Shown: positions 1 through 29,776, numbered from the stretch's first letter. The stretch is 64,000 bases of DNA from an uncultured Planctomycetia bacterium (GCA_964373505.1 CAYJVC010000003.1:11336-75335); one strand, 5' to 3'. Numbers and translations: made by a program. The notes: generated by a model from the letters alone, not told the origin.

Positions 1-735
1 GAGACGCTGATCACGGCCATCAAAACGGGCTCACCCTCCAAGCGCTGGCAAAAAGCGTTTGAGCTCTCGAATGAACTCAACCGCCGAAAAGAAAACATAC
101 GCTCGGAAGGCCTCCTGAACGAAATGATCCACATCCTCGGCGACGCCGGCCGCTACGACGCTAAAACGCGCGGTTACATTGCCATGGCGCTGGGCCATTT
201 TGACAATACGGTGTCTCGAAACGCGCTGACGGGCGCCCTCTCGGATCCCTCCGAGGACGTGCAGCTTTATGCGCTCTGGGCGCTCGGGGATGCGAAGGCC
301 GGGTCCGCAGTGCCCGCGATCCTTCCTTTTCTGAAAAATGAGAAAGAAAGTTTAAGAAAAACGGCAGCCTATGTCCTCGGAGCGATCGCAAGCGCAGAAG
401 CAGCGCCGGATTTAAGGCTTCTTTTGGATGACAAAGTTGCCGACGTACGATGGAACGCGGCGCTTGCCCTGGCGAGGCTTGACGACGGCTCCGGCCTCCC
501 GGTGCTTCTCGAAATGTTGGATAGAGAGGGCCTCGCGGCCGCTTGGCGCATGAACGATGCCGAGATCGAGACCGTGATGATCAACGCGATCCGGGGGATC
601 GCGTTCGTCGGCGACGGAGGATCCGCCCAGATTCTTAAAACGATCTCGCGCGAAGACAAGAGCTTAAAGGTGCGCCAAGCCGCGATCGAAGTTTACAACG
701 CTCTCGCCACAAGGCCTAGGCGAGTCCGTCCATAA
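1..735 (+). CDS. HEAT-repeat (PBS-lyase-like) protein, 5'-partial (the reading frame is open from window position 1)
   Basis: Repeated LxALGxxxxxxAVPALxxLLxD HEAT/PBS-lyase motifs (ALWALGDAKAGSAVPAILPFL, VRWNAALALARL). The frame is open back to the window edge and stops with TAA at 733-735. Confidence 0.6.
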   Translation, partial: ETLITAIKTGSPSKRWQKAFELSNELNRRKENIRSEGLLNEMIHILGDAGRYDAKTRGYIAMALGHFDNTVSRNALTGALSDPSEDVQLYALWALGDAKAGSAVPAILPFLKNEKESLRKTAAYVLGAIASAEAAPDLRLLLDDKVADVRWNAALALARLDDGSGLPVLLEMLDREGLAAAWRMNDAEIETVMINAIRGIAFVGDGGSAQILKTISREDKSLKVRQAAIEVYNALATRPRRVRP

Positions 736-792
736 AGCTTGACATACTTATCATGGACCTTGTGGACGAGTCCGACAAGCTTTATGGCGGAC
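703..792. repeat. Family-2 palindromic intergenic repeat, copy A (CTCGCCACAAGGCCTAGGCGAG ... CCATAAAGCTTG ... GTGGACGAGTCC ... CAAGCTTTATGGCGGAC)
   Basis: Colinear with copy C at 29690-29776, which has the same CTCGCCACAA-N6-GGCGAG hairpin, the same AAAGCTT/AAGCTTT arms and the same GTGGACGAGTCC core. It overlaps the last codons of the HEAT gene and lies upstream of the Rieske gene. Confidence 0.5.
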
Positions 793-854
793 TTGATATT
801 CCAAATTAACACCATTAGAATGTAAGGATTTAAATTTAGCAAAAGGATTTTTAA

Positions 855-1439
855 ATGCCGGATACTCCGCAACCGCCCACCATTCCTGCACCTGCGGCAC
901 AACCTGCGCCTAAACCGGCGGTCGGCCTGCCCGCCGGCCAGGCAGGAGCGCCCACAATGGACAGGCGGCGTTTTCTTTCCTGGGTGGGCATCGCCTGGGT
1001 GAGCTTCGCGGCCGCGACGGGGGGTGCCCTTTCCATCGTGCTTCGTTTTCTTTTTCCGAATGTCGTGTTCGAGCCTCCCACTTCATTCAAGGCCGGTTTT
1101 CCGAGCGATTATGAAGTCGGATTGGTGGACGAGCGCTGGAAGGAGAAATTCGGCGTCTGGATGGTCCGGACCCTCGAGGGGATCTACGCGCTTTCCACGA
1201 TCTGCACGCACCTGGGTTGCACGCCCAATTGGCTTTCCAACGAAAATAAATTCAAATGCCCCTGCCACGGCAGCGGATTTTACAAAACGGGCATTAATTT
1301 TGAAGGCCCGGCGCCGAGGCCTCTCGAACGGTACCGGATCGCGCTTGCGGACGACGGGCAGATCCTGATCGATAAAAGCAAAAAATTCCAGCAGGAAAAA
1401 GGGGAGTGGAACAACCCGGAGTCATTCCTTGTTTGCTGA
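855..1439 (+). CDS. Rieske [2Fe-2S] iron-sulfur protein of a cytochrome bc/b6f-type complex, with a twin-arginine signal
   Basis: Rieske boxes CTHLGC and CPCHGSGF are present. The N-terminus carries RRRFLSWVG (Tat motif) followed by a hydrophobic helix. The gene lies immediately upstream of cytochrome b. Confidence 0.85.
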   Translation: MPDTPQPPTIPAPAAQPAPKPAVGLPAGQAGAPTMDRRRFLSWVGIAWVSFAAATGGALSIVLRFLFPNVVFEPPTSFKAGFPSDYEVGLVDERWKEKFGVWMVRTLEGIYALSTICTHLGCTPNWLSNENKFKCPCHGSGFYKTGINFEGPAPRPLERYRIALADDGQILIDKSKKFQQEKGEWNNPESFLVC

Positions 1440-1477
1440 CATAACATTTGCCAGCATGGCTGCATCCGCGGGTCCTG

Positions 1478-1556
1478 CCCGCCACAAATCGCGTCGGGCT
1501 CGTCCACACGCGTCGGCGCGATTTGTGGACGGGCTCGCCGACGCTTTGTGGCGAGC
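1478..1556. repeat. Family-2 palindromic intergenic repeat, copy B (compound palindrome CGCCACAAATCGCG / CGCGATTTGTGG / TGTGGACGGGCTCG / GCTTTGTGGCGAGC)
   Basis: Shares the CGCCACAAAG and TTTGTGGACG(A/G)G motifs with copies A and C. It sits in the Rieske to cytochrome b spacer. Confidence 0.5.
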
Positions 1557-1664
1557 CGCTTCGACAGCCCCATTCGTTCTCGCGTCACTCAAGGAGCGCT
1601 GCGAGCGAATGGGGCGCCGCGCGTCTTGCGCGTCACCCGCGGATGCCACAATTGGAGGAAAACT

Positions 1665-2465
1665 ATGCCAGAACCTTCGTCAAAACTAAAATTTAATCTC
1701 GGTAAATTTATCACCGATTCGCAGATTTATAAGTCGATGTTCCGCCACGGTTACTCGACCTCCGACCGCGACCGGGCGCTTTCGGTGATGACCAATGTTT
1801 TCTTTCATTTGCATCCGGTCAAGGTGAGAAAATCCGGCGCGCGTTTCGGATTTACCTGGTGCGCAGGAGGGCTTTCATTCTTCGTGTTCCTGACGCTCGT
1901 CGTAAGCGGCATTCTTCTTATGTTCTACTACCGGCCGACCGTGGAATACGCCTACAACGACATCCTCGCACTCCGCGAGCACGTGCCGTTCGGGATCATG
2001 CGCGAGCTGCACCGTTGGGGCGCGCATGCGATGATCATCACGGTGTGGCTCCATATGTTCCGCGTGTTCATGACGGGCTCCTACAAGCCGCCGCGTGAAT
2101 TCAATTGGGTGATCGGCGTAATTCTTCTGGTCCTGACGATGCTATTAAGCTTCACCGGGTATCTCTTGCCATGGGACCAACTGGCGATGTGGGCGATCAC
2201 GGTGGGGAGCAACATGGCGCGCGCAACCCCGTTTCTGGGGCATGAGGGGCCGGGGGCGTCGCTTTTATCCCTGGGGGATATCCAACTTGTTCATTCCGGA
2301 AGCGACGTGCGTTTCGCGCTCCTGGGCGGCCGCTTCGTGGGCGCCGGGGCTCTTTTGAGGTTTTATATCCTGCATTGTGTGGCGATCCCGACGGTCGTCG
2401 TCCTCCTCATGTCCGTGCACTTCTGGAGGATCCGCAAGGACGGCGGCATTAGTGGACCTTTATAA
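1665..2465 (+). CDS. Cytochrome b, N-terminal (b6-like) half of a split cytochrome b
   Basis: GGAGG precedes the ATG at 1665. Cytochrome b/b6 heme-ligand helices are present ([31 protein letters not shown]). The ORF-track start at 1548 would add a 39-aa basic extension with no ribosome-binding site. Confidence 0.85.
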
Positions 2466-2487
2466 TGTGGATTACGCGGATTGAAGT

Positions 2488-2533
2488 AATGATTACGCAG
2501 ATTAACCGTTTTGATCAGCGTAATCATTTTTTT
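2488..2533 (+). terminator. Intrinsic-terminator-like hairpin between the two cytochrome b halves, embedded in alternative pairings
   Basis: AATGATTACGC (2488-2498) pairs perfectly with GCGTAATCATT (2518-2528) and is followed by seven T (2527-2533). The flanking segments GTGGATTACGCGGATT (2468-2483) and AATCTGCGAAATCCAC (2534-2549) can form competing helices. Confidence 0.45.
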
Positions 2534-2562
2534 AATCTGCGAAATCCACTTAGGTTTATAGG

Positions 2563-3645
2563 ATGATTGAGTCGTTTAAGCATTTCGTCAACGCCGTCTC
2601 GTCTCCCGTCACTATCTTCAGTTTCGCGACCGCGGTTTTTGTCCTGTTCGTGCTGTTCCCCAGACAGCTCACGGCCAAATGGGCCGGTCTCGGGATCCTG
2701 TTCCTCGTCTTGGCATTTTTCGGCATGGGCCTCACGGATGAGCATTTTCGAAAGATCGTAAGCACCCCCGACAACGTCCCGATCGTCGGCCTCATCTTCA
2801 TCTTCGGCTACTTCACCTGGTTCGCGATGAAAAAAGCGGTGGACAATGACCGCCGCATCGAAAAAGGGGAGCCGACGCTCGAGCAGAAGGAAACCAACGA
2901 CAAGGTGCTTGTGTTTCCTTACCTCATTTTCATTGAATTCGTGGTGGCGCTCGCCTATGGCGCGATGCTCGTGATCTGGTCCCTTTTCCTGAAAGCGCCG
3001 TTGGAGGAGCCGGCCAATCCGACCGTATCACCCAACCCGAGCAAGGCGCCCTGGTATTTTCTCGGGCTCCAGGAAATGCTTGTCTATTTTGACCCATGGA
3101 TCGCAGGCGTTCTTTTGCCGACCTTCATTATCATAGGCCTGTGCGCGATCCCTTACCTCGACCGCGACCCGGCCAATTCCGGTTTCTACTGTTACAAAGC
3201 GCGCAGGCCTATCATTATCACTTATCTTTTCGGCTTCTGGATCCTCTGGATCCTCCTCATCGTCATGGGAACCTTCCTGCGGGGCCCGAACTGGAACTTC
3301 TTCGCGCCGTTCGAGGTATGGGACGTGCATAAGGTCGTGCCGCTGGTGAATGTCAACCTGTCCGAGCTTATTTTCATTAAATGGCTGGGCGTGGGATTGC
3401 CCAAACAGTGGTTCATCCGGGAACTACCGGGTTTCGTTCTGGTCCTCCTGTATTTTGCGGTTCCTCCGCTCGTGCTTGCGCGGACTGCTTTCAAGGAGCT
3501 CTACAAAAAGCTGGAACCCGCGCGTTACTCGGTGCTCATGATCATCCTGCTCACGATGATCGCGTTGCCGATCAAGATGTACCTGCGGTGGGCGTTCAAC
3601 CTGAAATACCTCGTCGCGATCCCCGAATTTTTCTTCAACATCTAG
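2563..3645 (+). CDS. Cytochrome b C-terminal half (b6f subunit IV-like) with additional C-terminal transmembrane helices
   Basis: Carries the PWYFLGLQEMLVYFDPWIAGVLLP motif, which is the PEWY-type Qo-site region of subunit IV / cytochrome b C-terminus. The rest is multiple hydrophobic helices. Confidence 0.8.
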   Translation: MIESFKHFVNAVSSPVTIFSFATAVFVLFVLFPRQLTAKWAGLGILFLVLAFFGMGLTDEHFRKIVSTPDNVPIVGLIFIFGYFTWFAMKKAVDNDRRIEKGEPTLEQKETNDKVLVFPYLIFIEFVVALAYGAMLVIWSLFLKAPLEEPANPTVSPNPSKAPWYFLGLQEMLVYFDPWIAGVLLPTFIIIGLCAIPYLDRDPANSGFYCYKARRPIIITYLFGFWILWILLIVMGTFLRGPNWNFFAPFEVWDVHKVVPLVNVNLSELIFIKWLGVGLPKQWFIRELPGFVLVLLYFAVPPLVLARTAFKELYKKLEPARYSVLMIILLTMIALPIKMYLRWAFNLKYLVAIPEFFFNI

Positions 3646-3648
3646 CCC

Positions 3649-6465
3649 ATGGCCAAAGAGACTCCGACCCTCTACAGCGTTCACAAAACGTTCATTTGGT
3701 TCGCCGGGGTGAGCCTCGTGCTGACGTTCTCGCTCGTGGCGATCGTTTATGTCGATTATGCGCGCGAATGGAAAACCTATCAGAAAAAATTCATTCGGCT
3801 CAAAACCGAAATGACCAAAAAAGAGCTGAAAATCGTCGAGGCGGGGCTAGACAAAAAAAGATTGGAAGAGCTGGAAAAGCGATGGAAAGACGCCGACGCT
3901 GATCTTAAATCCCGGCAAGCCGACCGGAAGCCTCTGCAGGCCAAGATCAATCGTCTCGATACGGAAATTGCCAAGGCACTCGCTCAAACCCAGGACCTAA
4001 AGCAATTTCAGGACTCTTATAAGTACTATTTGGAGGAAACCCGCGCGCACCAGGATCCGCAGGCATCGGAGTACGAAAAAAAATTGAAAGCGCTGGCACC
4101 CAAGCTCTCGCAGGCAAAACTCGGCTTGGAGAGGCTCGAGAAGGAGAAGGAGGAAAACCAGGCTGCGCTGGACGCAATGGGGGCCAACGAGCGGTCGATC
4201 CAAAAAGAAATTGAAAAAACGCTGGAAGAAAAAACCCGCCTCGAGCGTAAACTCAAGAGCGTGGAACCGACGCTCGCCAAAGAGGTCCTGAACGCGCCGA
4301 TGGTCGATTTCATCGCGCCAAGCCTAAGGATCCAGCAGATCGTGCTGGAAGACTTGGAGGATGACTATCACTTCGCAAGGGTGCAGAAGGTGGACCGCTG
4401 TACCACCTGCCATCTCGGGATAGACCAAAAAGGGTTCTCCGCCGAAGGCGGAAACGTACCTCAGCCATTCAGGGCTCATCCAAATTTGGAACTTTACCTC
4501 GGCTCTCAATCACCTCACCCGATCGAGAAATTCGGCTGCACGACCTGTCACGGCGGCAACGGCCACTCCGTGAGCTTCAAGGATTCGGCGCACACGCCGC
4601 AAACCGAAGCCCAAAAAGAGACTTGGCAAAAAAAATATCACTGGGAAGAACTCGAAAAGTGGGAAGCGAAGATGCTGCCCCTCAACTTCACGCAAGCATC
4701 CTGCGCCAAATGCCACAACGGAGTTGTCGAAGTGCCCAAGGCCGATAAGCTGAACAGGGGAAGAAAGCTCGCGGAAACTCACGGCTGCTTCAACTGCCAT
4801 AAAGTCAGCGGCTTTGAGGACCGGTGGAAAGTCGGGCCTGATCTCTCGCGCGTTGCCGGCAAACTGGACGGCGCCTGGATCGAAAAATGGCTCGAAGACC
4901 CGAAGTCGTTCAGACCTTCCACGAAGATGCCCCAAGTGTTCCATCTTTCGAACACCGATTCACCCGAAGACCGGGAAAGAAACCGCGCAGCCATCAAGGC
5001 CATCGCGGCTTATTTGATCAAAAACTCCGAACCCCTCGAGCTCACAAAACCCGCGCTCGCCGGTAACGCCGAAAACGGCGAGAAGCTGGTGAAGGAGCTT
5101 GGGTGCCTAGGTTGTCATGCCGTAGGGGGCGTTTCGATCCCGCCGCTGGCGGACAGTGACCATGGCCCCGAACTTTCAAACCTCGGAAGCAAGGTGACCC
5201 CTGAGTGGCTCTTCACGTGGCTAAAGGACCCGAAGCACACTTCAACCTCCACGCGCATGCCCAACCTTAGGTTAAGCGACCAGGAAGCCTCGGACATCGC
5301 CGAATTTCTTTTGTCGCAAAAAAACGCCGAGTTTGAGAATAAACCTCCGGTGGAAGCCAAGCCCCAGGTGATGGATGAGCTGATTCTCGCATCACTTCAG
5401 GGCAGCCTGCGCCGCGTCGAAGCCGAGACGGAACTGTCAAAAATGACGCCGGAGGACAAGCTCCAGTTTCTGGGCAAGAAATCCATAAGCCAACAGGGCT
5501 GTTACACCTGTCACGCGATCAAAGGTTATGAGGACGTCAAGCCCATCGGCGCCGACTTGAGCAACGAGGGACGCAAGGACATCCACCAATTTGATTTTGG
5601 ATTTACCAAGATCGAACGCACACGCCAAGCGTTTATCGAACAAAAGTTGAAAGAACCCCGGCTATTCGATCAAGGCAAGGAGAAGACTTATTACGACAAG
5701 CTGCGCATGCCGCAGTTTAATTTCAATGAAGAGGAAGTGGAGGCGCTCACCACTTTTATCTTAAGTCTTTCCGAAGAACAAATCCCGCTTCAAATGCAGA
5801 AACGTCTCGACTTGAAAGAAGAGCAGGTCGAGAAAGGAAGGCTTTTAGTGTCCAAGCTTAATTGCGCAGGCTGTCACGCGCTCGACGGCAAACCCGGAGC
5901 GCTCAGGGAATCGATGGAAGACAAGGGCAATGCGCCGCCTGGTTTGAACGGGGAGGGCGCCAAGGTGCAGGAGAAATGGCTTCATGAATTTCTGAAAAGA
6001 CCGACCACGATCCGTCCATGGCTTCAGGTGCGCATGCCCACGTTTGGTCTCACCGAAGAGGAGACAAAAACGCTCGTGGAGTACTTTGCGAATCTGGCGC
6101 ACCAAGAGGTTTCCTACAAGGGCTATGAGATCCCGGTTCCCACTGCCGAAAAAATAGAAGCCGGCAGGACGCTCTTCAACAAACTCCAATGCGCGAAATG
6201 CCATGAGGTCAACGCCGCAAGCGTCGCCATGGGCAGCTCGTTCCTGGCGCCGGACCTTACGCTTTCCAAGCAACGCCTCAAGCCCGAGTGGGTCAAACAG
6301 TGGATCGCAGATCCGCAGGTCCTTGAAGAGGGGACCCTGATGCCCACGTTCTTCCCTGAGGGTCAGTCCCCGGTCGCCGACGTCCTGGAGGGGGATGCGA
6401 CAAAACAGATCGAGGCCATAAGAGATTATCTCTATTCATATGAAGCTCCCGCCAAATCTGAATAA
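3649..6465 (+). CDS. Octaheme c-type cytochrome with an N-terminal membrane anchor and a roughly 200-aa K/E-rich coiled coil
   Basis: Eight CxxCH motifs: CTTCH (twice), CAKCH, CFNCH, CLGCH, CYTCH, CAGCH and CAKCH. One N-terminal transmembrane helix (FIWFAGVSLVLTFSLVAIVYV). Residues about 40-230 are heptad-like and K/E-rich. Confidence 0.85.
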   Translation: MAKETPTLYSVHKTFIWFAGVSLVLTFSLVAIVYVDYAREWKTYQKKFIRLKTEMTKKELKIVEAGLDKKRLEELEKRWKDADADLKSRQADRKPLQAKINRLDTEIAKALAQTQDLKQFQDSYKYYLEETRAHQDPQASEYEKKLKALAPKLSQAKLGLERLEKEKEENQAALDAMGANERSIQKEIEKTLEEKTRLERKLKSVEPTLAKEVLNAPMVDFIAPSLRIQQIVLEDLEDDYHFARVQKVDRCTTCHLGIDQKGFSAEGGNVPQPFRAHPNLELYLGSQSPHPIEKFGCTTCHGGNGHSVSFKDSAHTPQTEAQKETWQKKYHWEELEKWEAKMLPLNFTQASCAKCHNGVVEVPKADKLNRGRKLAETHGCFNCHKVSGFEDRWKVGPDLSRVAGKLDGAWIEKWLEDPKSFRPSTKMPQVFHLSNTDSPEDRERNRAAIKAIAAYLIKNSEPLELTKPALAGNAENGEKLVKELGCLGCHAVGGVSIPPLADSDHGPELSNLGSKVTPEWLFTWLKDPKHTSTSTRMPNLRLSDQEASDIAEFLLSQKNAEFENKPPVEAKPQVMDELILASLQGSLRRVEAETELSKMTPEDKLQFLGKKSISQQGCYTCHAIKGYEDVKPIGADLSNEGRKDIHQFDFGFTKIERTRQAFIEQKLKEPRLFDQGKEKTYYDKLRMPQFNFNEEEVEALTTFILSLSEEQIPLQMQKRLDLKEEQVEKGRLLVSKLNCAGCHALDGKPGALRESMEDKGNAPPGLNGEGAKVQEKWLHEFLKRPTTIRPWLQVRMPTFGLTEEETKTLVEYFANLAHQEVSYKGYEIPVPTAEKIEAGRTLFNKLQCAKCHEVNAASVAMGSSFLAPDLTLSKQRLKPEWVKQWIADPQVLEEGTLMPTFFPEGQSPVADVLEGDATKQIEAIRDYLYSYEAPAKSE

Positions 6466-6542
6466 CGTCTACAGTAATTGCAATCCATGCCCAAAATAGA
6501 TACAATACAGTGAAAGTATAGAATTTTCAGGAGAGGGATCCC

Positions 6543-7250
6543 ATGAACAAAAAAGACTTTAAAAGGGTGTTTTTTTTCTTGTTTTTAACGGCTTTTATCG
6601 CGCTCCAGGCAAGCGCTGCGACTGTTACGGGCAAGATCGCGTTTGAAGGCCAGGCGCCAGAATCACAGGTCATTAAAATGGACGCCGACGCCACTTGCAA
6701 GCTCGCGCATCCAGAAGGCGCTAAGAGCGAAGAGGTGGTGGTCAACTCGAACGGCACGCTTAAGAACGTGTTCGTGTATGTGAAAGAGGGTCTCTCGAGT
6801 CAGAAATTTGACGCACCTAAGCAATCGGTCGTATTCGATCAAAAAGGCTGCCAGTATTCACCCCGAGTCCTTGGGATCCAAGTGGGGCAGCCGCTTGAAA
6901 TTCTGAACAGCGACCCCACGCTTCATAACGTCCACTCACTGGCCGCTAAATCCCAGCCGTTCAACCTCGGAATGCCCATCCAGGGCATGAAGCTGAAAAA
7001 AACGTTCACGGCCCCGGAAGTGATGGTGAAAGTAAAATGCGAGGTGCACCCGTGGATGGCGGGTTATATCGGTGTCCTGGATCACCCGTTTTTTTCGGTT
7101 TCAGGCGATGACGGGGGTTTTTCCATTAACAACCTTCCCCCGGGGGAATACGTGGTAGAAGCCTGGCATGAGAAATACGGCGCGCAAACCCAGAACGTAT
7201 CTATCGCCGCCGAAGGCGATTCGAAGGAATTGCAGTTCCAGTACTACTGA
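6543..7250 (+). CDS. Secreted cupredoxin-like (type-1 copper) protein
   Basis: Signal peptide (FFFLFLTAFIALQASAAT). Candidate Cu ligands are H in LHNVH followed by C-x2-H-x2-M (CEVHPWM). Sits between the cytochrome c gene and the heme A/O synthase genes. Confidence 0.5.
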   Translation: MNKKDFKRVFFFLFLTAFIALQASAATVTGKIAFEGQAPESQVIKMDADATCKLAHPEGAKSEEVVVNSNGTLKNVFVYVKEGLSSQKFDAPKQSVVFDQKGCQYSPRVLGIQVGQPLEILNSDPTLHNVHSLAAKSQPFNLGMPIQGMKLKKTFTAPEVMVKVKCEVHPWMAGYIGVLDHPFFSVSGDDGGFSINNLPPGEYVVEAWHEKYGAQTQNVSIAAEGDSKELQFQYY

Positions 7251-7327
7251 GTTACGTAAAACTGACCCACAACACCTCTAAAGTCCTCACGGCCGCAACG
7301 TTTCTTCTTATTATTGCCGGAGGGCTC

Positions 7328-8119
7328 GTGACAAGCACCGAATCGGGCCTTTCGGTGCCCGACTGGCCGCTTTCGTACGGCCAGTTTTTTCCACCGATGG
7401 TGGGAGGCATACGCTTTGAGCACACGCACCGCGTCATCGCCGGCGCCGTCGGGCTCCTCACGTTTATCTTTCTCGGCCTGCTTTTAAAAAATGAAAGAAG
7501 GGGATGGGTCAAGTGGCTGGGCGCGGTTTTGGCTGTTTCCGTCGTCCTGCAGGCCGTGCTCGGGGGAGTCACGGTTATTTATCTTTTGCCCACCGCGGTG
7601 TCCGTGGCCCACGCGTGCCTGGCGCAGGTATTTTTTGCGCTCGTCGCCTGCCTTATGCTTTTTACTTCGTCCGAATGGAAGAACCCCACTCAAATAGTTT
7701 CTGAAAATTCGAGGCCGCTCAAAAGTCTTTTGGCCACGACCGAGCTATTTGTCTTTTTTCAGCTTGTCGCCGGCGCGATCGTGAGACATACGCATGGCCA
7801 GGCTTTGGCGACCCACGTCATCCTGGCGTTCCTAATTGCGATCCACGCGCTTTTTATCGTCGTTCGTATCCTGAAGGACTCCGCGCTCATACCGTTCCTG
7901 AACCACGCTTTATTCCTCGCGAGTCTCGTAACGGCGCAGGTCTTTCTGGGGGCCGGTTCTTATATTCTTGCTCTCGTGATCGAAAAAGCGGCGTATCCGA
8001 GGACCTCGGAAGTGCTCATCACAACCGCCCATCAATCGATCGGAGCTTTGATACTCGCCACGACGACGATTCTTATGCTAAGATCTTTCAGGATTCTAAA
8101 ACCCGGATACTCGTCATGA
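7328..8119 (+). CDS. ctaA: Heme A synthase (CtaA/COX15 family, Cys-less type 2); the N-terminus probably extends upstream without a canonical start codon
   Basis: SGLSVPDWPLSYGQ and the conserved His-containing helices are present. The coordinates follow the GTG at 7328, but the frame is open from 7172 and encodes the expected first transmembrane helix (KVLTAATFLLIIAGGLV) with no in-frame ATG, GTG or TTG. Confidence 0.75.
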   Translation: MTSTESGLSVPDWPLSYGQFFPPMVGGIRFEHTHRVIAGAVGLLTFIFLGLLLKNERRGWVKWLGAVLAVSVVLQAVLGGVTVIYLLPTAVSVAHACLAQVFFALVACLMLFTSSEWKNPTQIVSENSRPLKSLLATTELFVFFQLVAGAIVRHTHGQALATHVILAFLIAIHALFIVVRILKDSALIPFLNHALFLASLVTAQVFLGAGSYILALVIEKAAYPRTSEVLITTAHQSIGALILATTTILMLRSFRILKPGYSS

Positions 8120-9629: not shown

Positions 9630-9633
9630 TGAA

Positions 9634-9996
9634 ATGAACACGTCAGCGGAGCAGGCGGCGAATAAAGCCGCGCAGATCATGGCGGAGCGGGACCAGAAAC
9701 CTCCGCGTAAAAAAACTCCTCCCAAGCTCGCCGTCATTGAACAAAGCGGCTGCACCGGATGCGAAGCCTGTATCGTCTTTTGCCCCGTGGACTGTATTGA
9801 GATCGTGCCGGGAATAAATTTTCATCCGCAAGTACAGCAGGTCGTGGAAGTGGACCTTGCGCGGTGCATCGGCTGCGCGCTTTGCGCGAAAAACTGCCCC
9901 TGGGACACGATCGAGATGCTGCCCACCGAGCAGGCGCTTAAAGAGGCTCCTTCCTACACGCTCAAAAGCGTCTGCGGTCAGGGGACAGCAACCTAG
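9634..9996 (+). CDS. 2x[4Fe-4S] ferredoxin
   Basis: Two CxxCxxCxxxCP clusters (CTGCEACIVFCP and CIGCALCAKNCP). GGTGGGAG ribosome-binding site before the ATG at 9634. Confidence 0.8.
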   Translation: MNTSAEQAANKAAQIMAERDQKPPRKKTPPKLAVIEQSGCTGCEACIVFCPVDCIEIVPGINFHPQVQQVVEVDLARCIGCALCAKNCPWDTIEMLPTEQALKEAPSYTLKSVCGQGTAT

Positions 9997-10934: not shown

Positions 10935-10972
10935 GTCAGGGTTTTTATTATAGCATAGACAAGGAGGCAAGA

Positions 10973-12328: not shown

Positions 12329-12331
12329 GCA

Positions 12332-18208: not shown

Positions 18209-18238
18209 AATGCTTTATACTAACTTTTTACCGCTTCT

Positions 18239-21823: not shown

Positions 21824-22383
21824 GAGGGCTTTTTGATAAGTTCCATGAATTCCATGCGCGTGGCGCGGTCCGTCCGGAACACCCCCAGCATCGTGCTCGT
21901 CACGCACACCGAACTTTGTTTTTCAACCCCCCGCATCGCCATGCAAAGATGCAGCGCCTCGATGATCACGGCTACGCCGAGCGGCTCGAGCGCGTCCTTC
22001 AGGCAATTGGCGATCTGGCTTGTGAGACGTTCCTGCACTTGGAGGCGCCGCGCGAACATATTCACGATCCGGGGAATTTTACTCAAACCCACGATCTTCC
22101 CGCTTGGGATATAGGCCACATGGCACTTCCCGTAAAATGGCAGGAGATGGTGTTCACAGAGGCTAAAAAGGTCTATGTCCCTCACCACCACCATCTCATC
22201 GTACTCTTCGTTAAAGACGGCCTTATTCAACACGTCCTTAGGGCTGAGTTTGTAGCCGCTGGTTAGGAATTGGTACGAGGCCTCGACACGCTTCGGGGTT
22301 TTTATAAGGCCCTGGCGTTTCGGATCTTCCCCCAGGAGAATGAGAAGACGGCGCGTCAATGCGCTGATTTCGGCCTTTTTCAC
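21820..22383 (-). CDS. folE: GTP cyclohydrolase I
   Basis: CEHHLLPF...GKCHVAYIP motif. GTG start at 22383, preceded by the family-1 arm. Confidence 0.9.
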
Positions 22384-22486
22384 CCCACCACCTCCTTCCG
22401 AGATAGCTTAAAGGCTGTCTCGATGCGTAAATTTTCTTTAATTTGCGCATCGCACAACAAAGTTGTAGAAGGAGGTGGTGGGGTCA
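22380..22486 (-). repeat. Family-1 intercistronic palindromic element E1 (variant arms TCACCCCACCACCTCCTT / AAGGAGGTGGTGGGGTCA)
   Basis: 17-18 bp perfect inverted arms. The left arm ends at the folE GTG start codon. Includes an internal AAATTTTCTTTAATTT module. Confidence 0.65.
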
Positions 22487-22517
22487 TAGTGGGGAGATTA
22501 TACGATAACGCGGGAGC

Positions 22518-22576
22518 TTTTAAAATAAAAAACCCCGTCCTCTCTCAAGGTTCATTGACCTTAAGAGAAGACGGGG
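22518..22576 (-). terminator. Rho-independent terminator downstream of the 22596-22949 gene
   Basis: Stem CCCCGTCTTCTCTTAAGG...CCTTGAGAGAGGACGGGG followed on the - strand by TTTTTTATTTTAAAA. Confidence 0.55.
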
Positions 22577-22595
22577 CTCTGATTAAACCAGACCG

Positions 22596-22949
22596 TTACT
22601 CCAATCGAGCCTTTTCAGGATTGATCAGCGGCTGTTTTTTGGGGATCCAAAACGTGATAAGGTCTATCACGCCCGCACCCGTCCTATGAAGCGCCCTACG
22701 GGCCCCGATCGCGCCACCGGCCACAACACCCGTGAGCTGTTCGCCCGTGCTCTTCCCCTTGGAAGCTTCGGCATGGGTGCTGTCCAGTACTTCCACCCAA
22801 CCGGTGCCGACATTCCTTGAACCAACCTGCACATTTTTTACCTGTGCCTTGCCGTCATTGGCTGACATCGAAGCGTCATCCGCAAAAGCGGGAATTCCCA
22901 TCGCGACCGCAACGAACAGCAGTAAAGCTAACGCAACTGATTTCTTCAC
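22596..22949 (-). CDS. Small secreted Gly-rich hypothetical protein
   Basis: Signal peptide MKKSVALALLLFVAVAMGIPAFA. Has its own terminator and an AT-rich upstream region. Confidence 0.45.
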   Translation of the reverse strand: MKKSVALALLLFVAVAMGIPAFADDASMSANDGKAQVKNVQVGSRNVGTGWVEVLDSTHAEASKGKSTGEQLTGVVAGGAIGARRALHRTGAGVIDLITFWIPKKQPLINPEKARLE

Positions 22950-23070
22950 TCTTTTCCTCCTTATTATATAGAAATACTAACGTTGATATTCTATTACACA
23001 ACACTCTTTTTATGCAAGTTCAATTTTATTTCTAAAATTTCTATCTATTTACTAGTATTTTTAAGTGATA

Positions 23071-23574
23071 TTAACGAAGATTAACAAATTGTAGATCAAC
23101 CCCAAAATCCTGTTTCCTTAAATAGACGATGACGGCTTGCAGATCATCGATCTTGACCGCCTGCACCCGCACCTGGTCGGATTGGATCGTGGCTTGAACC
23201 TTCATTTTGATCTCTTTGATGCTTTTGACTATTTCCTTGGCCTTGTCGGAAGGGATGCCGTTCTGCACCGTGACGACCTGCTTCACGGAGCCGCCGACCA
23301 TGCCCGTTTCCAGCTTTCCAAACTGCAGCGCCTTGAGCGATACGCCGCGCTTCACGCATTTGGTTTGAAGCATGTCCACGAGCGTTTTCAACCGGTATTC
23401 ATTTTCAGTTTTAAACGTGATCGTTTTCTGAGTTTTGTCGAGCTCCAGGGTGCTCATCGAGCCTTTGAAATCAAAGCGGTTCTCAAGCTCCTTTTTGGCC
23501 TGCTGCACGGCATTGTCCAGCTCCTGCATATTGACCTCCGACACCACGTCGAACGAATGATCCTTAGCGCCCAT
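23071..23574 (-). CDS. yajQ: YajQ-family nucleotide-binding protein (UPF0234)
   Basis: [19 protein letters not shown]...ENRFDFKG signature. Start taken at the ATG at 23574. Confidence 0.75.
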
Positions 23575-24430
23575 GGCCCACAACACTCCCGATCCGGCTC
23601 AAATTCCGTATCACGTGCACTCCTTTTTTTTCGAGCGAGGAAATTTTCTCCTGCGCCGTGCCCGAGGAGCCGGAAATAATAGCGCCCGCGTGGCCCATGC
23701 GTTTGCCCGGCGGCGCCGTTATGCCGGCAATAAACGCGAAAACCTCTTTCTTCATATTTTCCTGAATGAAATGGGCGGCCTCTTCTTCCTGACTGCCTCC
23801 GATCTCCCCGATGAGAAGCACCGCCCGGGTCTGGGGATCTTTCTCAAACATCTCCAAGAGCTCAATGAAGCCCGTGCCGATCACAGGGTCCCCGCCGATA
23901 CCGATGCAGGTCGTCTGGCCAAGTCCCGCCGAGCTCAATTGCCACACCGCCTCATAGGTCAAGGTGCCGCTTCGCGAGATCACGCCGATATCGCCTTTTT
24001 TATGGATATAACCCGGCATGATGCCGATCTTGCACGTTTCGGAGGTGATAATTCCGGGGCAGTTGGGCCCGATAATTCGGGCGCCCCGGGCCTTGGCATA
24101 TTCCACCGCCTTCACCATGTCCAGCGTAGGAATACCCTCCGTGATGCAGACGAGAAGTTCTATCCCGCCGTCCACGGCCTCTATGATCGCCGATAAGGCA
24201 AACGGCGCCGGGACATAAAGCATCGAAGCGATCGCGCCTGTTTTCTCGACGGCCTCCCGGACCGTATTGAACACGGGGATCGTTCCGACAAAACTGCCCC
24301 CTTTCCCGGGGGTCACTCCCCCCACAAGCTTTGTGCCGTACTCCAGGCATTTCTGGGAATGAAAACTGCCGGCCTTTCCGGTGATCCCCTGGCAAATGAC
24401 TCGTGTGTTCTTATCAACGAGTATCGGCAT
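23564..24430 (-). CDS. sucD: Succinyl-CoA synthetase alpha subunit
   Basis: VICQGITG and CoA-binding motifs. Overlaps the sucC stop. The ORF-track start at 24493 has a spurious basic extension. Confidence 0.9.
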
Positions 24431-25604
24431 GGGCTTGGGAATATTGTTTGGCCTTCTTGACGGCCGTTTCGGCGGCTTCCTGGATCGTCGCACAAGACAG
24501 GATAGGTAAGCCGGAGTCTTTCAGAAGCCTCCTCCCCTCTTCGACCTGCGTGCCTTCCAGGCGGACCACGAGCGGCACCTGGGATCGAACCTCCTTCGAG
24601 GCCTCGATCACGCCCTGAGCGATCACATCGCACCTCATAATACCGCCGAAAATGTTCACCAGGATAGCCTGCACGCGTTTATCTTCCAGAATGATCTTAA
24701 AACCTTCCCTCACCTGATCGGCCGTGGCGCCCCCTCCGACGTCTAAAAAATTGGCGGGTTCCCCGCCGGCCAACTTGATCGTGTCCATCGTCGCCATCGC
24801 AAGCCCCGCGCCGTTCACGAGACAGCCGACGTCACCGCTCATTGAAATATAGCTTAAACCGAACCCTTTGGCCTTCCTTTCGCGCTCGTCTTCCTCATCG
24901 GGGTCCTTCAAGGCCTGGTTCTCGGGGTGCCGGAACAACGCATTGTCATCAAACACCATTTTGGCGTCCAGCGCCATCACCCGGCCGCCTTCCACCAGCG
25001 CCAGTGGGTTGATCTCACAGGTCGAAGCGTCCTTTTCTACAAAAAGCCTCGCCAGCTTCTCGGCGATAGCTGCAATTTGTTCGGGGGTCGCCCGATCGGA
25101 ATAGATCGGTTTTATCAAGGAAATGATCTGCGCGGCCGTGGGAAGCGACTCGGGTGAAAAGTGCATTCGGTGGATCGCCGAAGGGTTCTTCGCAGCCACC
25201 TCCTCGATCTCGACGCCGCCCTCTTTTGAGAACAGGATCACGGGCTTATTTTTTGTGCGGTCCACCACAAGGCCCAAATAATATTCCTCACGGATGGGTT
25301 TGTCTTCGGTGATCAGAACGGATTTAACGGTCTTCGCCTCGCCGCCCGACTGGGGGGTGGAAAAAGGCTTGCACAGGAATTTTTCGGCGAACGCCACGGC
25401 CTCGGCGGCCGTCCGAACTTTTTGAACGCCGCCCGCTTTCCCGCGGCCTCCCATCAACACCTGAACCTTCGTGATGCAAGAGGGGCCGGCGTAACGGCCA
25501 AAGGCGGCTTGGATATCCTTGGAATTAAAGACAGCTTCACCTCGGGGGATGGGGATGCCGTAACTTTCCAGAAGGTTTCTGGCCTGATATTCGTGGAGTT
25601 TCAC
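24414..25604 (-). CDS. sucC: Succinyl-CoA synthetase beta subunit
   Basis: ATP-grasp domain with N-terminus [15 protein letters not shown] start at 25604 inside the family-1 arm. Confidence 0.9.
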
Positions 25605-25719
25605 CCCATCCCCTGTTTCTTTGTTTTAAGAACAAACAAATTCGCCTCCGGCGTATTTGAACGCCGCTTTTCGTAGTTTTTTTGCCGCCACAGCGGCGTT
25701 GAAACAGGGGATGGGGTCA
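25601..25719 (-). repeat. Family-1 intercistronic palindromic element E2 (TCACCCCATCCCCTGTTTC ... GAAACAGGGGATGGGGTCA)
   Basis: The right arm ends with TCA, which is the mdh TGA stop codon (25717-25719). The left arm ends at the sucC GTG start (25602-25604). Internal hairpins GGCGTATTTGAACGCC and GCCGCCACAGCGGCG. Confidence 0.65.
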
Positions 25720-26664
25720 TAATAGCCCGAGCCGCGTAAGCTCACCGACGCCCTGCTTGACTTTGCGAGCCGAAAGCTCCAAAGCCTTTTTTTCTTCGGC
25801 CGTCATTTCGATCGTCACTACTTTCTCTACGCCGTTTTTGCCCAGTTCAACCGGAACTCCGAAGTACATGTCCTTCAAGCCGTATTCACCGTTTAAATAA
25901 GCGCATACGGGCAGCACCTTTTTTTCATTCTTTAGTATCGCCTTGACCATCTCGGCAATGGAGCTGGCCGGTGCATAGAACGCACTCCCCGTTTTTAAGA
26001 GTGCCACGATCTCGGCTCCGCCGTCGCGGGTCCTCTGCTCGATCCGGGCCAGTTCTTCGGGTGGAATGAGCTCCTCCACGGGCTTATTCTTGACAGCCGA
26101 ATGGCTGGATAGCGGCACCATCAGATCTCCGTGCCCGCCCAAAACGACCGCAACCACATCACGCGGCAAAACCTCTAACCGCTCCGCGATGAAGGCGCGC
26201 ATGCGCGCGGTATCCAATACGCCCGCCATCCCGAAAACCCTCTGCGACGGAAAAGCCGCCGTTTTAAACGCCAAATAAGTCATGACGTCCAAAGGGTTCG
26301 TCACGATCATGATCTTGGAATCGGGCGCGTATTGCTTGACGTTCGCGCATACCTCCTTCACGATCTTCGCATTGAGCGCCAGGAGGTCCTCGCGCGTCAT
26401 GCCGGGTTTGCGCGGCAGCCCCGCCGTCACCACCACGAGTTCGGCGCCCGCAATATCCTTGTAGTCGTTGGTCCCGACGATCCGCTTGTCATGCCCCTCG
26501 ATCGGCGCCGACTCCATGAGATCCAGCGCCTTGCCCTGCGGCAGGCCCTGAACAATGTCGAACAATACGACGTCCGAGAGGCCTTTCTCCAAGATCCGCT
26601 GGGCCGCAGTGGCCCCCACTTGTCCCGCGCCGATCACGGCCACGAACGGTTTTCGGATCTTCAT
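25717..26664 (-). CDS. mdh: Malate dehydrogenase (LDH-like family)
   Basis: AVIGAGQVGAT Rossmann motif and MTRDDL-like catalytic loop (GMTREDL). Confidence 0.9.
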   Translation of the reverse strand: MKIRKPFVAVIGAGQVGATAAQRILEKGLSDVVLFDIVQGLPQGKALDLMESAPIEGHDKRIVGTNDYKDIAGAELVVVTAGLPRKPGMTREDLLALNAKIVKEVCANVKQYAPDSKIMIVTNPLDVMTYLAFKTAAFPSQRVFGMAGVLDTARMRAFIAERLEVLPRDVVAVVLGGHGDLMVPLSSHSAVKNKPVEELIPPEELARIEQRTRDGGAEIVALLKTGSAFYAPASSIAEMVKAILKNEKKVLPVCAYLNGEYGLKDMYFGVPVELGKNGVEKVVTIEMTAEEKKALELSARKVKQGVGELTRLGLL

Positions 26665-27107
26665 TTGAGGATCTTTCCCAAAAAATCGCTGATGCGCCTG
26701 GCTTCCGCCTGACCGGCCAGCTTTTCCGTCAGAAGCTTCATCAGGCGCCCGAAGTCTTTTTTGGAAACGACGCCCGCGGCTTGTACCTGGCTTTGAATAA
26801 ATCTCTCAAGATCGGCGTCCGGCATCTGTTTCGGCAGGTAAGTTTCAAGCAGGGCGACCTCTTTCTTCTCCTTCTCCGCCAGATCCGCACGGCCTCCCTT
26901 CATGAACTGATCGATCGACTCACGTCTCTGCTTGATCTGTTTCTGGATCACCGACTGCACATCGGAGTCGCTTAAAACCCCACCTTTTTTTTCAATGGCC
27001 ACATACTGGATCGCGGACTTCAAGAACCTCAAGGCGCCCAGCTTTTGAGAGTCTTTGGAAATCATCGCCTGCTTTACGTCGGAATCGATTTTTTCCACCA
27101 AAGACAT
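26661..27107 (-). CDS. GatB/YqeY domain protein
   Basis: YqeY family N-terminus (SLVEKIDSDVKQAMISKD). ATGA overlap with mdh. Confidence 0.7.
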   Translation of the reverse strand: MSLVEKIDSDVKQAMISKDSQKLGALRFLKSAIQYVAIEKKGGVLSDSDVQSVIQKQIKQRRESIDQFMKGGRADLAEKEKKEVALLETYLPKQMPDADLERFIQSQVQAAGVVSKKDFGRLMKLLTEKLAGQAEARRISDFLGKILK

Positions 27108-27219
27108 GCCTTATCTCCTGTTACTCGGTAAACTAAAGGGGAGTCGCCGCGCGACGCACCGGCTAACTCCCCTTAAGAAATAGGACTAGTGAACTTTTTC
27201 GTATCGAAAGCTTGAGAAC

Positions 27220-27573
27220 TTACTGATTTTCTTCCGCTGCTTTTACCGGGATCTGAACCGTTTCGGACACTGTCTGACCCGTCGTTTCAAGCGTTCCGAC
27301 GACCGGTTGCGCCACAACCCCGCCCAGATCACCCCCGGCAATGGCCCCACCCGTGTTGGACAGGACCTTTTCTCCGGTGTTGTTAAGCGTATTGGCGGTC
27401 ATTTCGCCGGTTTCTTGAGTTGCTTTCACCGGATAGTTGAAAAGCCTTCTGAAAAAACCCGTGACGCTATTTTCCGAGTCACTGGCTGCCGCAAAAGCCG
27501 TTGAAATAAGAGACAACGAAAAAAGCCCGATCAAGGACGCTACGAGCACTTTCTTTGAAAAATGAGACATCAA
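27220..27573 (-). CDS. Small secreted hypothetical protein
   Basis: Signal peptide (LVASLIGLFSLSLISTAFA) followed by a Gly/Thr-rich mature region. Confidence 0.4.
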   Translation of the reverse strand: MMSHFSKKVLVASLIGLFSLSLISTAFAAASDSENSVTGFFRRLFNYPVKATQETGEMTANTLNNTGEKVLSNTGGAIAGGDLGGVVAQPVVGTLETTGQTVSETVQIPVKAAEENQ

Positions 27574-27622
27574 AACCTCCTGTTAATTTAAGAAGACATT
27601 ATAAAAATTGCGGGAGGGCAAG

Positions 27623-29455
27623 TCAAGCAAATTGGGAGGTCTGGATCTTATAGGGAACGGTATTTTGAGAATCCGCGTTGGTGATCAAAAGGTATACCTT
27701 TCGGATATCCTTCGCTTGAAGCCCTTCCTTTTTAATTTCCTCTTCAAGCGATAGTCGATTGCCTGGATTCCGTCTGATAACCAAACCGCCCTTCGTCACC
27801 AAGATGGCCTGCACGGTGAGCGGCTTGTCCAACGATCCCGTGGAGACAGCCAGTTCGGGTAAAGAAGCCGTGCCCTTGGCAATGTTTATTTCGTAATAAT
27901 CTGTCGCCCATCCTGAAACATCGCTCCGGTCCGAGCTGTCCCCCGCGACAGACGACTCCCCGTGCCTGGCCCGGCGATCTCCCCAGCCTCCGATCCAGTC
28001 GGTCTCGCAGACCGCCCCCAAGAGCCTTTCCGAGCCATAACCGTCCTTTAAATAAAACGCGCGCTTGCGGTATACGAGCTTCGTTTTGGCGACGTCCTTT
28101 AAAAAGACGACGTCATCTTTGAGTTCAAAGTCTTTCAGGAGGATGGCCAGCGCAAATTCTTTAAGAAGGCCCGCGAAAGGGGTGCCGGTGACCCTTTCAA
28201 GCGCCGGCTTAAAATTCTCCGGATCGACGCCTCGAAATTCGCGGCTTAAGCGTTCGATCGAAGACATGCCGTAGCGAGTATCGATAAAGCGCCAAAAAAG
28301 CGCATTCTCGTACCGCAACTCCATGAACGACTGGTCCGGATAGCACATGAAATAATTAGCGCCGCCGCGGGAGAATCGTATCTTATCGGGCAGCACCTGT
28401 TTGAACCCTTGCGAATAAAAATCATGCCGTGCGCCCGCAAAGGTCTCAAAATATCGGGCGAGCCCCTCCACGTACCAATCCAATTTTTTGACGGGTGCCT
28501 GTTGCTTGGAGCCGTCAAATTCCTTGTTGAGGTTGCGGTTGTAATAAAACAAGACCACGTGGAGCATCTCGTGAATCAGCGTGCCGCGAAGGTCCACGTC
28601 GATATTCCGGGCCCCGAGCGGCGACGGATTGATGAGCTCCCAATTCCGGATAAAATCGCTGTAGTTCGCGGGCAATAGGATCACCGCGTTAAAGCCTGTC
28701 TTAGAAACGCGGGTCGTGTCAAAACAGGGCGCGTCCTTGAATGAGGCGGCGTTGAATCCGTGAGTGGGGAAGTTCTGGGTTTGATCGGGATTTCCTAAAT
28801 AAATGTCGATAGTCTTGTCCGGGTCGTACGCGTATTTTCTACGCGGCGACACGAATGAAAAACCGTCCGTGTTGAATCCCTGGGACTGGGTGATGATCTG
28901 ATAGGCGGATACGGCGGCGTCCAGCACCTCTTTTGGGAAAGTTGGCCCCTGGCGGCTCTCCTCCAAGAGCTGGTCCGTGAAATAAACCCTGATGGATGCG
29001 CCGTCCGGAAACCGGTGTTCATAAACCTTTTCAAGGGTGCGGTGTGCGGCCAGCGTTTTGCCGTTGCCTTTGATCACAAGCCGGCCTGTGAAACTCTCTT
29101 TGGCGGGGGTGACCGTCAGCCGTCCCTGCCTGAGCGAATTCAAGTGCACATTCCAAACTCTTTTGCCCTTGGTGTCTTTCAAAGCCTCCAGGTGGCCATC
29201 CGCGCGCTGCACGTAGCCCCACACCCTCACACTTTGCCAGGGTTTCCAATGGCAGGCGATACTTTGAGCGCGTTCGATCGAAATGATCAGGGGGGTGCTT
29301 TTTTCAGGATCGCTTAGGTTGATCTGGGAATAGGAATGGCTTTGGGATCTTTCTTGAGCGGCTGAGACTTCGCGGCAACTCAGGCCTAAAACAACCATGA
29401 GGGCCGCCATGAGAAAACGAACCTTGCAAGATCGCCGCATGTCCTTATCCTTCAT
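27623..29455 (-). CDS. Large secreted protein with an HEXXH...E motif (putative gluzincin-like metallopeptidase)
   Basis: Signal peptide, HEMLH at the Zn site and a downstream EGLARYFE. Start uncertain: it could be 29440, 29455 or 29515. Confidence 0.45.
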   Translation of the reverse strand: MKDKDMRRSCKVRFLMAALMVVLGLSCREVSAAQERSQSHSYSQINLSDPEKSTPLIISIERAQSIACHWKPWQSVRVWGYVQRADGHLEALKDTKGKRVWNVHLNSLRQGRLTVTPAKESFTGRLVIKGNGKTLAAHRTLEKVYEHRFPDGASIRVYFTDQLLEESRQGPTFPKEVLDAAVSAYQIITQSQGFNTDGFSFVSPRRKYAYDPDKTIDIYLGNPDQTQNFPTHGFNAASFKDAPCFDTTRVSKTGFNAVILLPANYSDFIRNWELINPSPLGARNIDVDLRGTLIHEMLHVVLFYYNRNLNKEFDGSKQQAPVKKLDWYVEGLARYFETFAGARHDFYSQGFKQVLPDKIRFSRGGANYFMCYPDQSFMELRYENALFWRFIDTRYGMSSIERLSREFRGVDPENFKPALERVTGTPFAGLLKEFALAILLKDFELKDDVVFLKDVAKTKLVYRKRAFYLKDGYGSERLLGAVCETDWIGGWGDRRARHGESSVAGDSSDRSDVSGWATDYYEINIAKGTASLPELAVSTGSLDKPLTVQAILVTKGGLVIRRNPGNRLSLEEEIKKEGLQAKDIRKVYLLITNADSQNTVPYKIQTSQFA

Positions 29456-29594
29456 TCTGGTTAACCCAGACGTTCGGCAAACTTCGAAAACCGGACAAGG
29501 ACACTGATCCGCCAAAGGACATTCGTCCTTCGGCGAATTGTCAGCAACCCAGCCGCCCTATTCCCCCTTGATGGGGCCGAATGTAGGCCTGTCG

Positions 29595-29776
29595 GCTTTG
29601 CCCGCCAAACAGCGCGGCGGCTCGTGACCCGCCAATCTTTTTGGTGGGCCTCTCGGCTCGCTATGCTTTTTGACGAGTCCGCCTTCCTCGCCACAAAGCG
29701 CCGGCGAGTCCCTCCACTAAAGCTTTGTGGACGAGTCCACCGAAGCTTTAGTGGCGGATTTATGGCGGACGTCCCC
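29595..29776. repeat. Family-2 palindromic repeat cluster, copy C, including the perfect 14-bp palindrome GTGGACGAGTCCAC (29727-29740) flanked by CCACTAAAGCTTT / AAGCTTTAGTGG
   Basis: Contains CTCGCCACAAAGCGCCGGCGAG, repeated CCCGCCAA motifs and a TTATGGCGGAC tail, as in copies A and B. Confidence 0.5.

Follow-up and report, generated by a model that had tools for sequence, protein, structure and literature searches.

In classical miniature inverted-repeat transposable elements (MITEs), among them Correia/NEMIS and ERIC, the ends are inverted repeats and the target site is duplicated (e.g., TA), repetitive extragenic palindromic (REP) elements carry a 5' GTAG-type motif, and the attC sites of integrons are single nested hairpins at the end of a gene cassette beside an integrase, for which the folded strand and its extrahelical bases matter. 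The REP elements and REPINs of Pseudomonas and the Enterobacteria are mobilized by RAYT transposases (PMC3116915, PMC3337134), and the ends of IS200/IS605 elements and their miniature derivatives (PATEs) are acted on as folded single strands by HUH enzymes (PMC6006769); the Rickettsia palindromic elements (RPEs) are palindromic repeats of 100-150 bp in intergenic and protein-coding DNA (PMC1779305). We have analyzed a 64-kb stretch of DNA (the window, in whose coordinates all positions are given) from an assembly labelled uncultured Planctomycetia bacterium (GCA_964373505.1, CAYJVC010000003.1:11336-75335), in which an earlier note had described a palindromic repeat at three intergenic sites, two of them in a Rieske/cytochrome b cluster. 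We conclude that these repeats, A, B, and C, are probably copies of an undescribed family of small, non-coding, self-folding mobile elements of the Omnitrophota, 72 to 90 nt in length.

Copies of the element in the window and in other genomes

All three repeats are present where the earlier note had placed them, as found both by counting words and with a covariance model (R1, made from 18 family members) that scores them at 75 to 87 bits, with E values of 1e-18 to 1e-21 in the 64-kb window. With filters off, the model finds no further copy in the 64 kb beyond these and a degenerate match at 29599-29678, giving four copies (A, B, C, and E) per 64-kb window:

703-791, + strand: copy A, full length, CTCGCC...GGCGGA; 83 bits with model R1
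1478-1555, - strand: copy B, full length and, in minus-strand reading, colinear with A and C; 87 bits with model R1
29687-29758, + strand: copy C, full length, CTCGCC...GGCGGA; 75 bits with model R1
29601-29769, + strand: copy E, older and degenerate, CCCGCC...GGCGGA, split by C; partial model match at 29599-29678, 24.5 bits

The words shared by A, B, and C align on pairwise comparison, the three being colinear and 71-73% identical in pairs; B had been described as a differently arranged double inverted repeat, but is instead a colinear copy read on the minus strand. A repeat finder connects 703-736, 1522-1555, and 29687-29720, and the word GTGGACGAGTCC, allowing at most one mismatch, occurs three times compared with 0.32 expected (0 of 100 shuffles reach three). 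The word CGCCACAAAG, also singled out previously, is by itself not enriched (eight matches vs 5.7 expected). The copies have exact ends, 5'-CTCGCC...GGCGGA-3', and fold more stably than shuffled sequence, with z scores of -4 to -7.7 for RNA and DNA parameters alike. The gene contexts are also as had been described: A lies upstream of the Rieske gene, between it and a HEAT-repeat gene (124-735); B lies in the 225-nt spacer from the Rieske gene to the gene for the N-terminal part of cytochrome b; and C lies upstream of the gene for a metallopeptidase-like protein of 630 amino acids with an HEMLH motif and a signal-like N terminus.

One genome per species was scanned with a pattern spanning only the first third of the element, and metagenomes were scanned with a pattern spanning only its middle. 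Seven of the 17 genome loci, from six metagenome-assembled genomes (MAGs), carry the entire colinear element; the other ten were dropped as chance matches in high-G+C coding DNA, as were 42 of the 53 metagenome matches. The remaining 11 metagenome matches are true ones, each also having the 5' and 3' ends that the pattern left unspecified. The label on five of the six element-bearing MAGs is Omnitrophota or Omnitrophica, and that on the sixth is uncultured Planctomycetia. The window organism is, to judge by its proteins, itself an Omnitrophota bacterium, because the clusters containing the nearest relatives of its cytochrome b (89-90% identity) include proteins named Candidatus Omnitrophota; named homologues of the metallopeptidase-like protein are almost all from Omnitrophica/Omnitrophota. 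The full-length set used below comprises 22 copies from the window, the six MAGs, and metagenomes, and L numbers denote comparison loci from MAGs or metagenomes, each of at most ~22 kb. The covariance model retrieved more copies plus 45-nt forms, which by orthologous comparison are apparently internal-deletion derivatives.

A scan of viral contigs for the element gave no match. Rfam 15 has no family for it at gathering or permissive thresholds (only a tRNA passes the gathering threshold in the window), and at E ≤ 10 the copies have only scattered microRNA and snoRNA matches far below threshold. An exact-protein look-up of the window Rieske protein returned no record, and nothing relevant came up in the literature on Omnitrophica/Omnitrophota repeats, palindromes, or tRNA introns; no description of the element turned up in Rfam or the literature searched.

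Two interleaved helices

The copies share a plan whose first half reads, 5' to 3', CTCGCC-ACAAAG plus a variable stretch, GGCGAGTCCG, TCCACAAA plus a variable stretch, and a loop; the second half, after the loop, consists of a variable stretch plus TTTGTGG, ACGAGTCCGCC, and a variable stretch plus TTTGTGGCGGA at the 3' end. In an alignment of the 22 full-length copies (A3), these segments form two interleaved helices of 15-16 bp with one conserved bulged base each. P1 joins the 5' end to the middle, pairing CTCG-CCACAAAG plus a variable stretch with a variable stretch plus CTTTGTGG-A-CGAG, and P2 joins the middle to the 3' end, pairing TCCG-T-CCACAAA plus a variable stretch with a variable stretch plus TTTGTGG-CGGA. 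Over the two helices 93.4% of cells pair, compensatory double changes are present in 14 of 31 pairs, and the covariation score is 0.160, compared with 0.059 for shuffled alignments (0 of 500 reach the observed score) and 0.02-0.05 for slid partners. The support for P1 is independent of the alignment, because P1 was not in the model that made it. In an alignment-free permutation test, which compares duplex energy within and between copies over 20000 permutations, the numbers of permutations as low as observed were as follows:

S1:S4 pairing: 2 of 20000
S3:S6 pairing: 0 of 20000
S1:S6 nested pairing: 6584 of 20000
S3:S4 nested pairing: 5072 of 20000

The nested (REPIN-type) arrangement, S1:S6 plus S3:S4, shows no covariation in pair counts either.

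The terminal hairpins H1 (CTCGCC/GGCGAG) and H3 (TCCGCC/GGCGGA) are 96-97% paired and almost invariant, and the hinge motifs and both bulged bases are near-invariant across MAGs of G+C 0.40 to 0.53. In two copies, however, three columns change together (2/23/94 in L005:113, and 24/95/117 in window copy B). Pairing is thus open to either terminus with both of the near-identical hinge segments (GGCGAG·TCCG and GGACGAG·TCCG); this dual pairing explains the GAGTCC direct repeat and implies two alternative conformations, the second of them with the small hairpins at the ends. RNAalifold chooses H1 plus P2, a fold in which the H1 loop is complementary to the P2 loop, which would give a kissing-loop or pseudoknot arrangement, as RNA or DNA. 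The perfect 14-bp palindrome GTGGACGAGTCCAC to which the earlier note drew attention is real in C (29727-29740) but is confined to C, 1 of the 22 copies; most of the other 21 have GGACGAGTCC followed by GCC, GAC, or GTC in its place. We note that each element has two GAGTC (GANTC) words, one per hinge (e.g., 724-728, 769-773, 29706-29710, and 29734-29738), and that other bacteria are known to methylate GANTC sites; in copy B both hinges read GAGCC instead, with a compensating change at the 3' end.

Insertion sites and empty orthologous sites

The secreted HEMLH metallopeptidase-like gene (27623-29515, - strand) has as its leader a c-di-GMP-I (GEMM-I) riboswitch (29539-29804, - strand), which is split at its junction by ~170 nt of nested elements and falls below the Rfam gathering threshold:

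29770-29804, - strand: 5' half of the c-di-GMP-I riboswitch (…AAAAGGCAAACCTCTGGAAACGGGGGGACG); partial Rfam match at 29746-29804 (-), 25.5 bits
29539-29600, - strand: 3' half of the c-di-GMP-I riboswitch (CAAAGCCGACAGGCC...GGCTGGGTTGCTGACA); read directly, and from RF01051 alignments of L082 and L083

The riboswitch core, GGGACG^CAAAGCC, is split exactly by E. Copy C sits in the loop of E's 3' hairpin, and E is interrupted not only by C but also by a further small hairpin, CCCGCCAATCTTTTTGGTGGG; the CCCGCCAA repeats reported beside C are present, but as part of this older, degenerate copy. Two further read sets of this strain (L079 and L080) have the spacer with C in identical form. The orthologous leaders in L081 (32.5 bits) and L082 (29 bits), from species whose neighboring protein is 64% and 69% identical to that of the window, have a single older copy E and no C, and the C site is empty in L082 (TCCGCC-TTC^TCTAT-GGCGGA, compared with TCCGCC-TTC[C]TTTAT-GGCGGA in the window). 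RF01051 spans the L082 riboswitch end to end only when 88 nt are skipped (34.1 bits), and the riboswitch halves around E remain near consensus in three species. At the more distant locus L083 (homologue 59% identical), the c-di-GMP-I riboswitch is intact, at 63.1 bits vs a gathering score of 35, and no element is present at the locus. Comparison of the leaders shows that E is an insertion into a c-di-GMP-I riboswitch and that C is a recent insertion into the older copy E. Given the empty riboswitch of L083, the split core, and the nesting of C, what had been described as a 400-bp spacer in the window is therefore a riboswitch leader holding a nest of elements.

Empty sites are also seen at the cytochrome bc operon. 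Six relatives, with cytochrome b 89-92% identical to the window's, have a compact HEAT-Rieske-cytochrome b operon, its spacers measuring -8 to 21 nt, and the covariance model finds no copy of the element in these loci. Between the HEAT and Rieske genes, four relatives have either an overlap or 19 nt, where the window has a 119-nt spacer, and the Rieske and cytochrome b genes overlap or are separated by 9-19 nt in all six, compared with 225 nt in the window, where alignment reveals ~210 extra nt around B. In translation, the first 33 nt of copy A supply the HEAT-repeat gene with its final 11 codons (LATRPRRVRP) and its stop codon; the C-terminal tail of this gene is unlike that of the four orthologues, A replacing the native tail and stop codon. 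A and B are thereby shown to be lineage-specific insertions into an otherwise compact operon. Two further palindromes in the DNA around B are missing from the relatives' spacers in the alignment:

1462-1473 and 1635-1646, no strand assigned: outer inverted repeat around B, GCATCCGCGGGT / ACCCGCGGATGC; read directly
1568-1614, no strand assigned: hairpin CCCCATTCG...CGAATGGGG in the same extra spacer DNA as B; read directly

The B spacer is a mosaic of several hairpin modules and resembles bacterial interspersed mosaic elements. We also note a promoter-like TTGATA-17-TAGAAT (10/12) at 793-821 (+), directly after copy A in the AT-rich 60 nt before the Rieske gene; the HEAT-Rieske junction of the relatives is too tight for such a promoter. 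Cytochrome b is encoded in two parts, N- and C-terminal, and the 97-nt spacer separating their genes is taken up by an inverted repeat (2467-2549) whose 39-nt arms are 82% complementary. This repeat is a third, unrelated palindromic insertion in the bc operon, because the genes for the two parts nearly abut in the relatives, where they overlap or lie 2-21 nt apart.

Elsewhere in the family, five copies lie in tRNA D loops, all at one position (...AATT^GGA..., just 5' of G18) in host tRNAs of three kinds (Arg-CCG, Arg-CCU, and Leu-UAG), with the element antisense to the tRNA in 5/5. Two copies lie in T loops, after TTC (position 56/57), one of them sense, and two more follow the anticodon loops of tRNA fragments. 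The interrupted tRNAs are mostly truncated, four of the five D-loop ones lacking the 5' acceptor strand and having an intact paralogue next door, and in-silico excision gives a tRNA recognized by ARAGORN (tRNA-Arg) in L051 only. Copies are also found within genes: one is in thiG of L016, in frame and sense, with the reading frame open through the element, such that Pfam splits the ThiG domain in two and the protein has ~23 extra residues between residues 49 and 56 relative to PDB entry 1xm3, and a 541-codon open reading frame (ORF) in L028 reads through another. Tallied against the nearest gene, about ten copies are sense and ten antisense, with neither orientation nor position favored. Every junction that could be resolved is seamless and without a target duplication (in the riboswitch, in the E hairpin loop, and, by comparison with intact paralogues, in the tRNA D and T loops), and there is no fixed target word beside the left end among the flanks tabulated (TCC, TTC, GCC, TTG, AAA, AAG, GCG, and others). 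These sites show that the element persists where a self-contained folded insert is tolerated, be it in spacers, hairpin loops, tRNA D and T loops, a riboswitch junction, or in-frame protein loops.

The tRNA-Arg loci have a shared arrangement in two species with ~70% nucleotide identity nearby, in which 'shadow' tRNA fragments with D-loop and T-loop elements come after an intact tRNA-Arg(CCG) (L004 3380-3860, -; L036 180-600, +). In either species one or more of the shadow fragments match the intact tRNA of that species, suggesting gene conversion. One chimera (L004 3588-3662) is wrongly called as a tRNA by ARAGORN. We considered retrocopying of a mature tRNA and rejected it; an encoded CCA follows one interrupted tRNA (L004) and not the others. 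A palindrome resembling parS, GTTTCCACGTGGAAAC (L041 ~9660-9680 and L060 ~3105-3125), neighbors the element in the gidA-parA spacer, a site that is probably near the replication origin. Another widespread repeat, TCATTGCGAGGAGCGAAGCGACGAAG ... GATTGCTTC...GCTCGCAATGA, forms outer palindromes around some copies; sites of this repeat are at L002 1377-1410 and 3560-3770, L041 9700-9870, and L036 366-390. The window has in addition a separate repeat family ('family 1'), made up of TCACCCCATCCCCTCCTT and the complementary AAGGAGGGGATGGGGTCA, which lie at the ends of numerous spacers between genes (22378-22489, 25599-25722, 44304-44427, 53406-53494, 57464-57554, 60603-60723, and others); on its sense strand the family can be read as a Shine-Dalgarno sequence with a tiny ORF behind it, ATG GGG TCA TAA or ATG GGG TGA.

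Mobility, host function, and known elements

We consider it likely that the element is a non-autonomous, REP/REPIN- and RPE-like mobile element that moves as a folded single strand. Movement would be in trans, by a structure-specific enzyme that would most likely be of a HUH/RAYT- or IS200/IS605-like kind, because insertion is seamless and the hairpins are bulged. The conserved hinge motifs and bulges may be the recognition features of that enzyme, and an insert would be tolerated wherever its self-contained fold does little harm. Several observations weigh against this explanation. A regular-expression scan for HUH-Y1 motifs in 645 ORFs gave no transposase or RAYT candidate, although such a scan is too crude to serve as evidence of absence, and there is no conserved target word at the left end, unlike in IS200/IS605 elements. 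Copy number looks low, with one or two matches to the strict pattern per representative MAG, the MAGs being incomplete and the pattern strict. Moreover, copies at orthologous sites are better conserved than their flanks: the D-loop copy of L004 and L036 is ~97% identical (counted from the alignment) vs ~75% for the adjacent intact tRNA genes, and the core of the element between gidA and parA in L041 and L060 is ~90% identical (counted) vs 72-75% over 5.7 kb. Conservation above the flanks suggests a host function or repeated correction of copies, unlike the behavior of a decaying selfish insert, and together with the low-looking copy number it speaks for selection or repeated correction at the level of individual copies.

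A possible, if doubtful, alternative is that the element is a host-selected structured module, each copy acting for the cell as folded RNA or DNA and mobility being only how the copies arose; it might, for example, be an orientation-independent signal for the processing or stability of mRNA or tRNA precursors, or a platform for a protein reading the GAGTCC hinges. The higher conservation of orthologous copies relative to neighboring intergenic DNA, coding DNA, and even an adjacent tRNA gene is consistent with this, as are the almost invariant hinges and bulged bases, the few copies per genome, and the near-consensus riboswitch halves around E. However, the copies favor neither an orientation nor a position with respect to genes, they lie in mostly truncated tRNA genes and inside ORFs, close relatives manage without A and B, and no Rfam family matches. 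Somewhat less probable again, and offered as speculation, is a new kind of miniature mobile module, in which interdigitated bulged hairpins switch between two pairings, home into the loops of folded nucleic acids, and are kept by selection. Its targets would be the tRNA D loop at 17/18, the T loop at 56/57, a riboswitch junction, and hairpin loops of its own relatives, read by an enzyme or by a host function; the part played by selection is proposed because orthologous copies change more slowly than the adjacent tRNA gene.

We regard it as very improbable that the element is an intron-like intervening sequence removed from RNA. Such an intron could explain the seamless inserts in tRNA loops, the riboswitch, and thiG, and in-silico excision restores the tRNA-Arg of L051 and the riboswitch core GGGACGCAAAGCC. 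But no single RNA strand can carry the activity, because the element is antisense in five D loops and the riboswitch and sense in thiG and one T loop, and this inconsistent orientation relative to the host RNA is accompanied by the defective state of most of the D-loop tRNAs, by the open reading frame through the thiG copy, and by the lack of a match to any ribozyme or intron family. A hepatitis delta virus (HDV)-like or other pseudoknotted ribozyme was rejected, the shortest copies having no room for P3/L3, the orientation being inconsistent, and Rfam giving no match. So was a Tn7-like end; the terminal TGTGGCGGA resembles what is generally known of Tn7 ends only in the wrong reading direction. 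A terminator was likewise rejected, the copies having no T tract and the terminator-like sites of our scan not coinciding with A, B, or C. Finally, the operator for a dimeric helix-turn-helix regulator of the Rieske/cytochrome b cluster proposed by the earlier note, for which the perfect dyad in C and the two copies flanking the Rieske gene had spoken, is effectively excluded because the same operon in six relatives lacks the element and has spacers too short for one, because copies are also in tRNA genes, thiG, a riboswitch, and beside unrelated genes, and because the dyad is perfect in 1/22 copies; the covariation, too, indicates pairing within one strand rather than a duplex binding site.

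The non-autonomous mobile element that we prefer is close to the other suggestion of the earlier note, a REP-like element, which pointed in the right general direction (repeated, hairpin-forming, mobile, and in either orientation), although several defining REP/REPIN features fail. The element resembles REP elements and REPINs in being short, repeated, non-coding, and non-autonomous, with two inverted hairpin modules and a spacer, in either orientation, and with vertical persistence possible. Unlike REP elements, it is not limited to extragenic DNA, having copies in thiG, the 541-codon ORF, tRNA genes, and a riboswitch, and unlike REPINs it has two interleaved covarying helices, not one long hairpin. 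A search of other genomes, as had been proposed, did find whole elements there, but in low-looking numbers compared with the tens to hundreds per genome of REP/REPIN sequences, and dozens of copies in terminator regions, as expected of a generic REP, were not found. The element also lacks a 5' GTAG-type motif, and no RAYT turned up in the crude scan of 645 ORFs.

The element resembles RPEs in several features: both intergenic and in-frame coding copies are tolerated, and lineage-specific proliferation is accompanied by some ancient copies (PMC1779305). In-frame copies of the RPE type are represented by the ThiG insert of L016 and by copy A, which supplies the C terminus of the HEAT protein. 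Unlike RPEs, the element is 72-90 nt rather than 100-150 bp (PMC1779305), belongs to a different phylum (Omnitrophota rather than Rickettsiales hosts), and inserts recurrently at fixed tRNA D- and T-loop positions and in a riboswitch. With IS200/IS605 elements it shares the lack of classical terminal inverted repeats, seamless insertion, and imperfect bulged hairpins as likely recognition features, but it differs in having no conserved 4-5-nt target at the left end and hairpins that interdigitate rather than one per end (PMC6006769). No TnpA turned up here, the HUH-Y1 scan of 645 ORFs being crude. Like Correia/NEMIS and ERIC, the element is small, non-autonomous, and hairpin-forming, and may be cotranscribed with neighboring genes; unlike classical MITEs, it has no duplication at any resolved junction. 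The emphasis on a folded single strand with conserved extrahelical bases over primary stem sequence is reminiscent of attC, although the element has neither a single nested hairpin at a cassette end nor a neighboring integrase. The element does not pass several of the tests that define REPINs, IS200/IS605 derivatives, and classical MITEs, and we therefore assign it to no named family.

Interleaved covarying helices, recurrent insertion into the elbow loops of tRNAs, and conservation above the flanks would be unexpected for an ordinary REP element or MITE. There are consequences for annotation, in that interrupted genes are overlooked or wrongly called by tRNA finders and Rfam and that gene callers stretch ORFs into the repeats, and the interrupted c-di-GMP-I riboswitch provides a natural experiment on the tolerance of a ligand-binding junction. 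In the uncultured Omnitrophota, compact operons, tRNA genes, and riboswitches still accept small self-folding inserts, and the element offers a small, concrete object for asking how such elements are recognized, moved, and kept.

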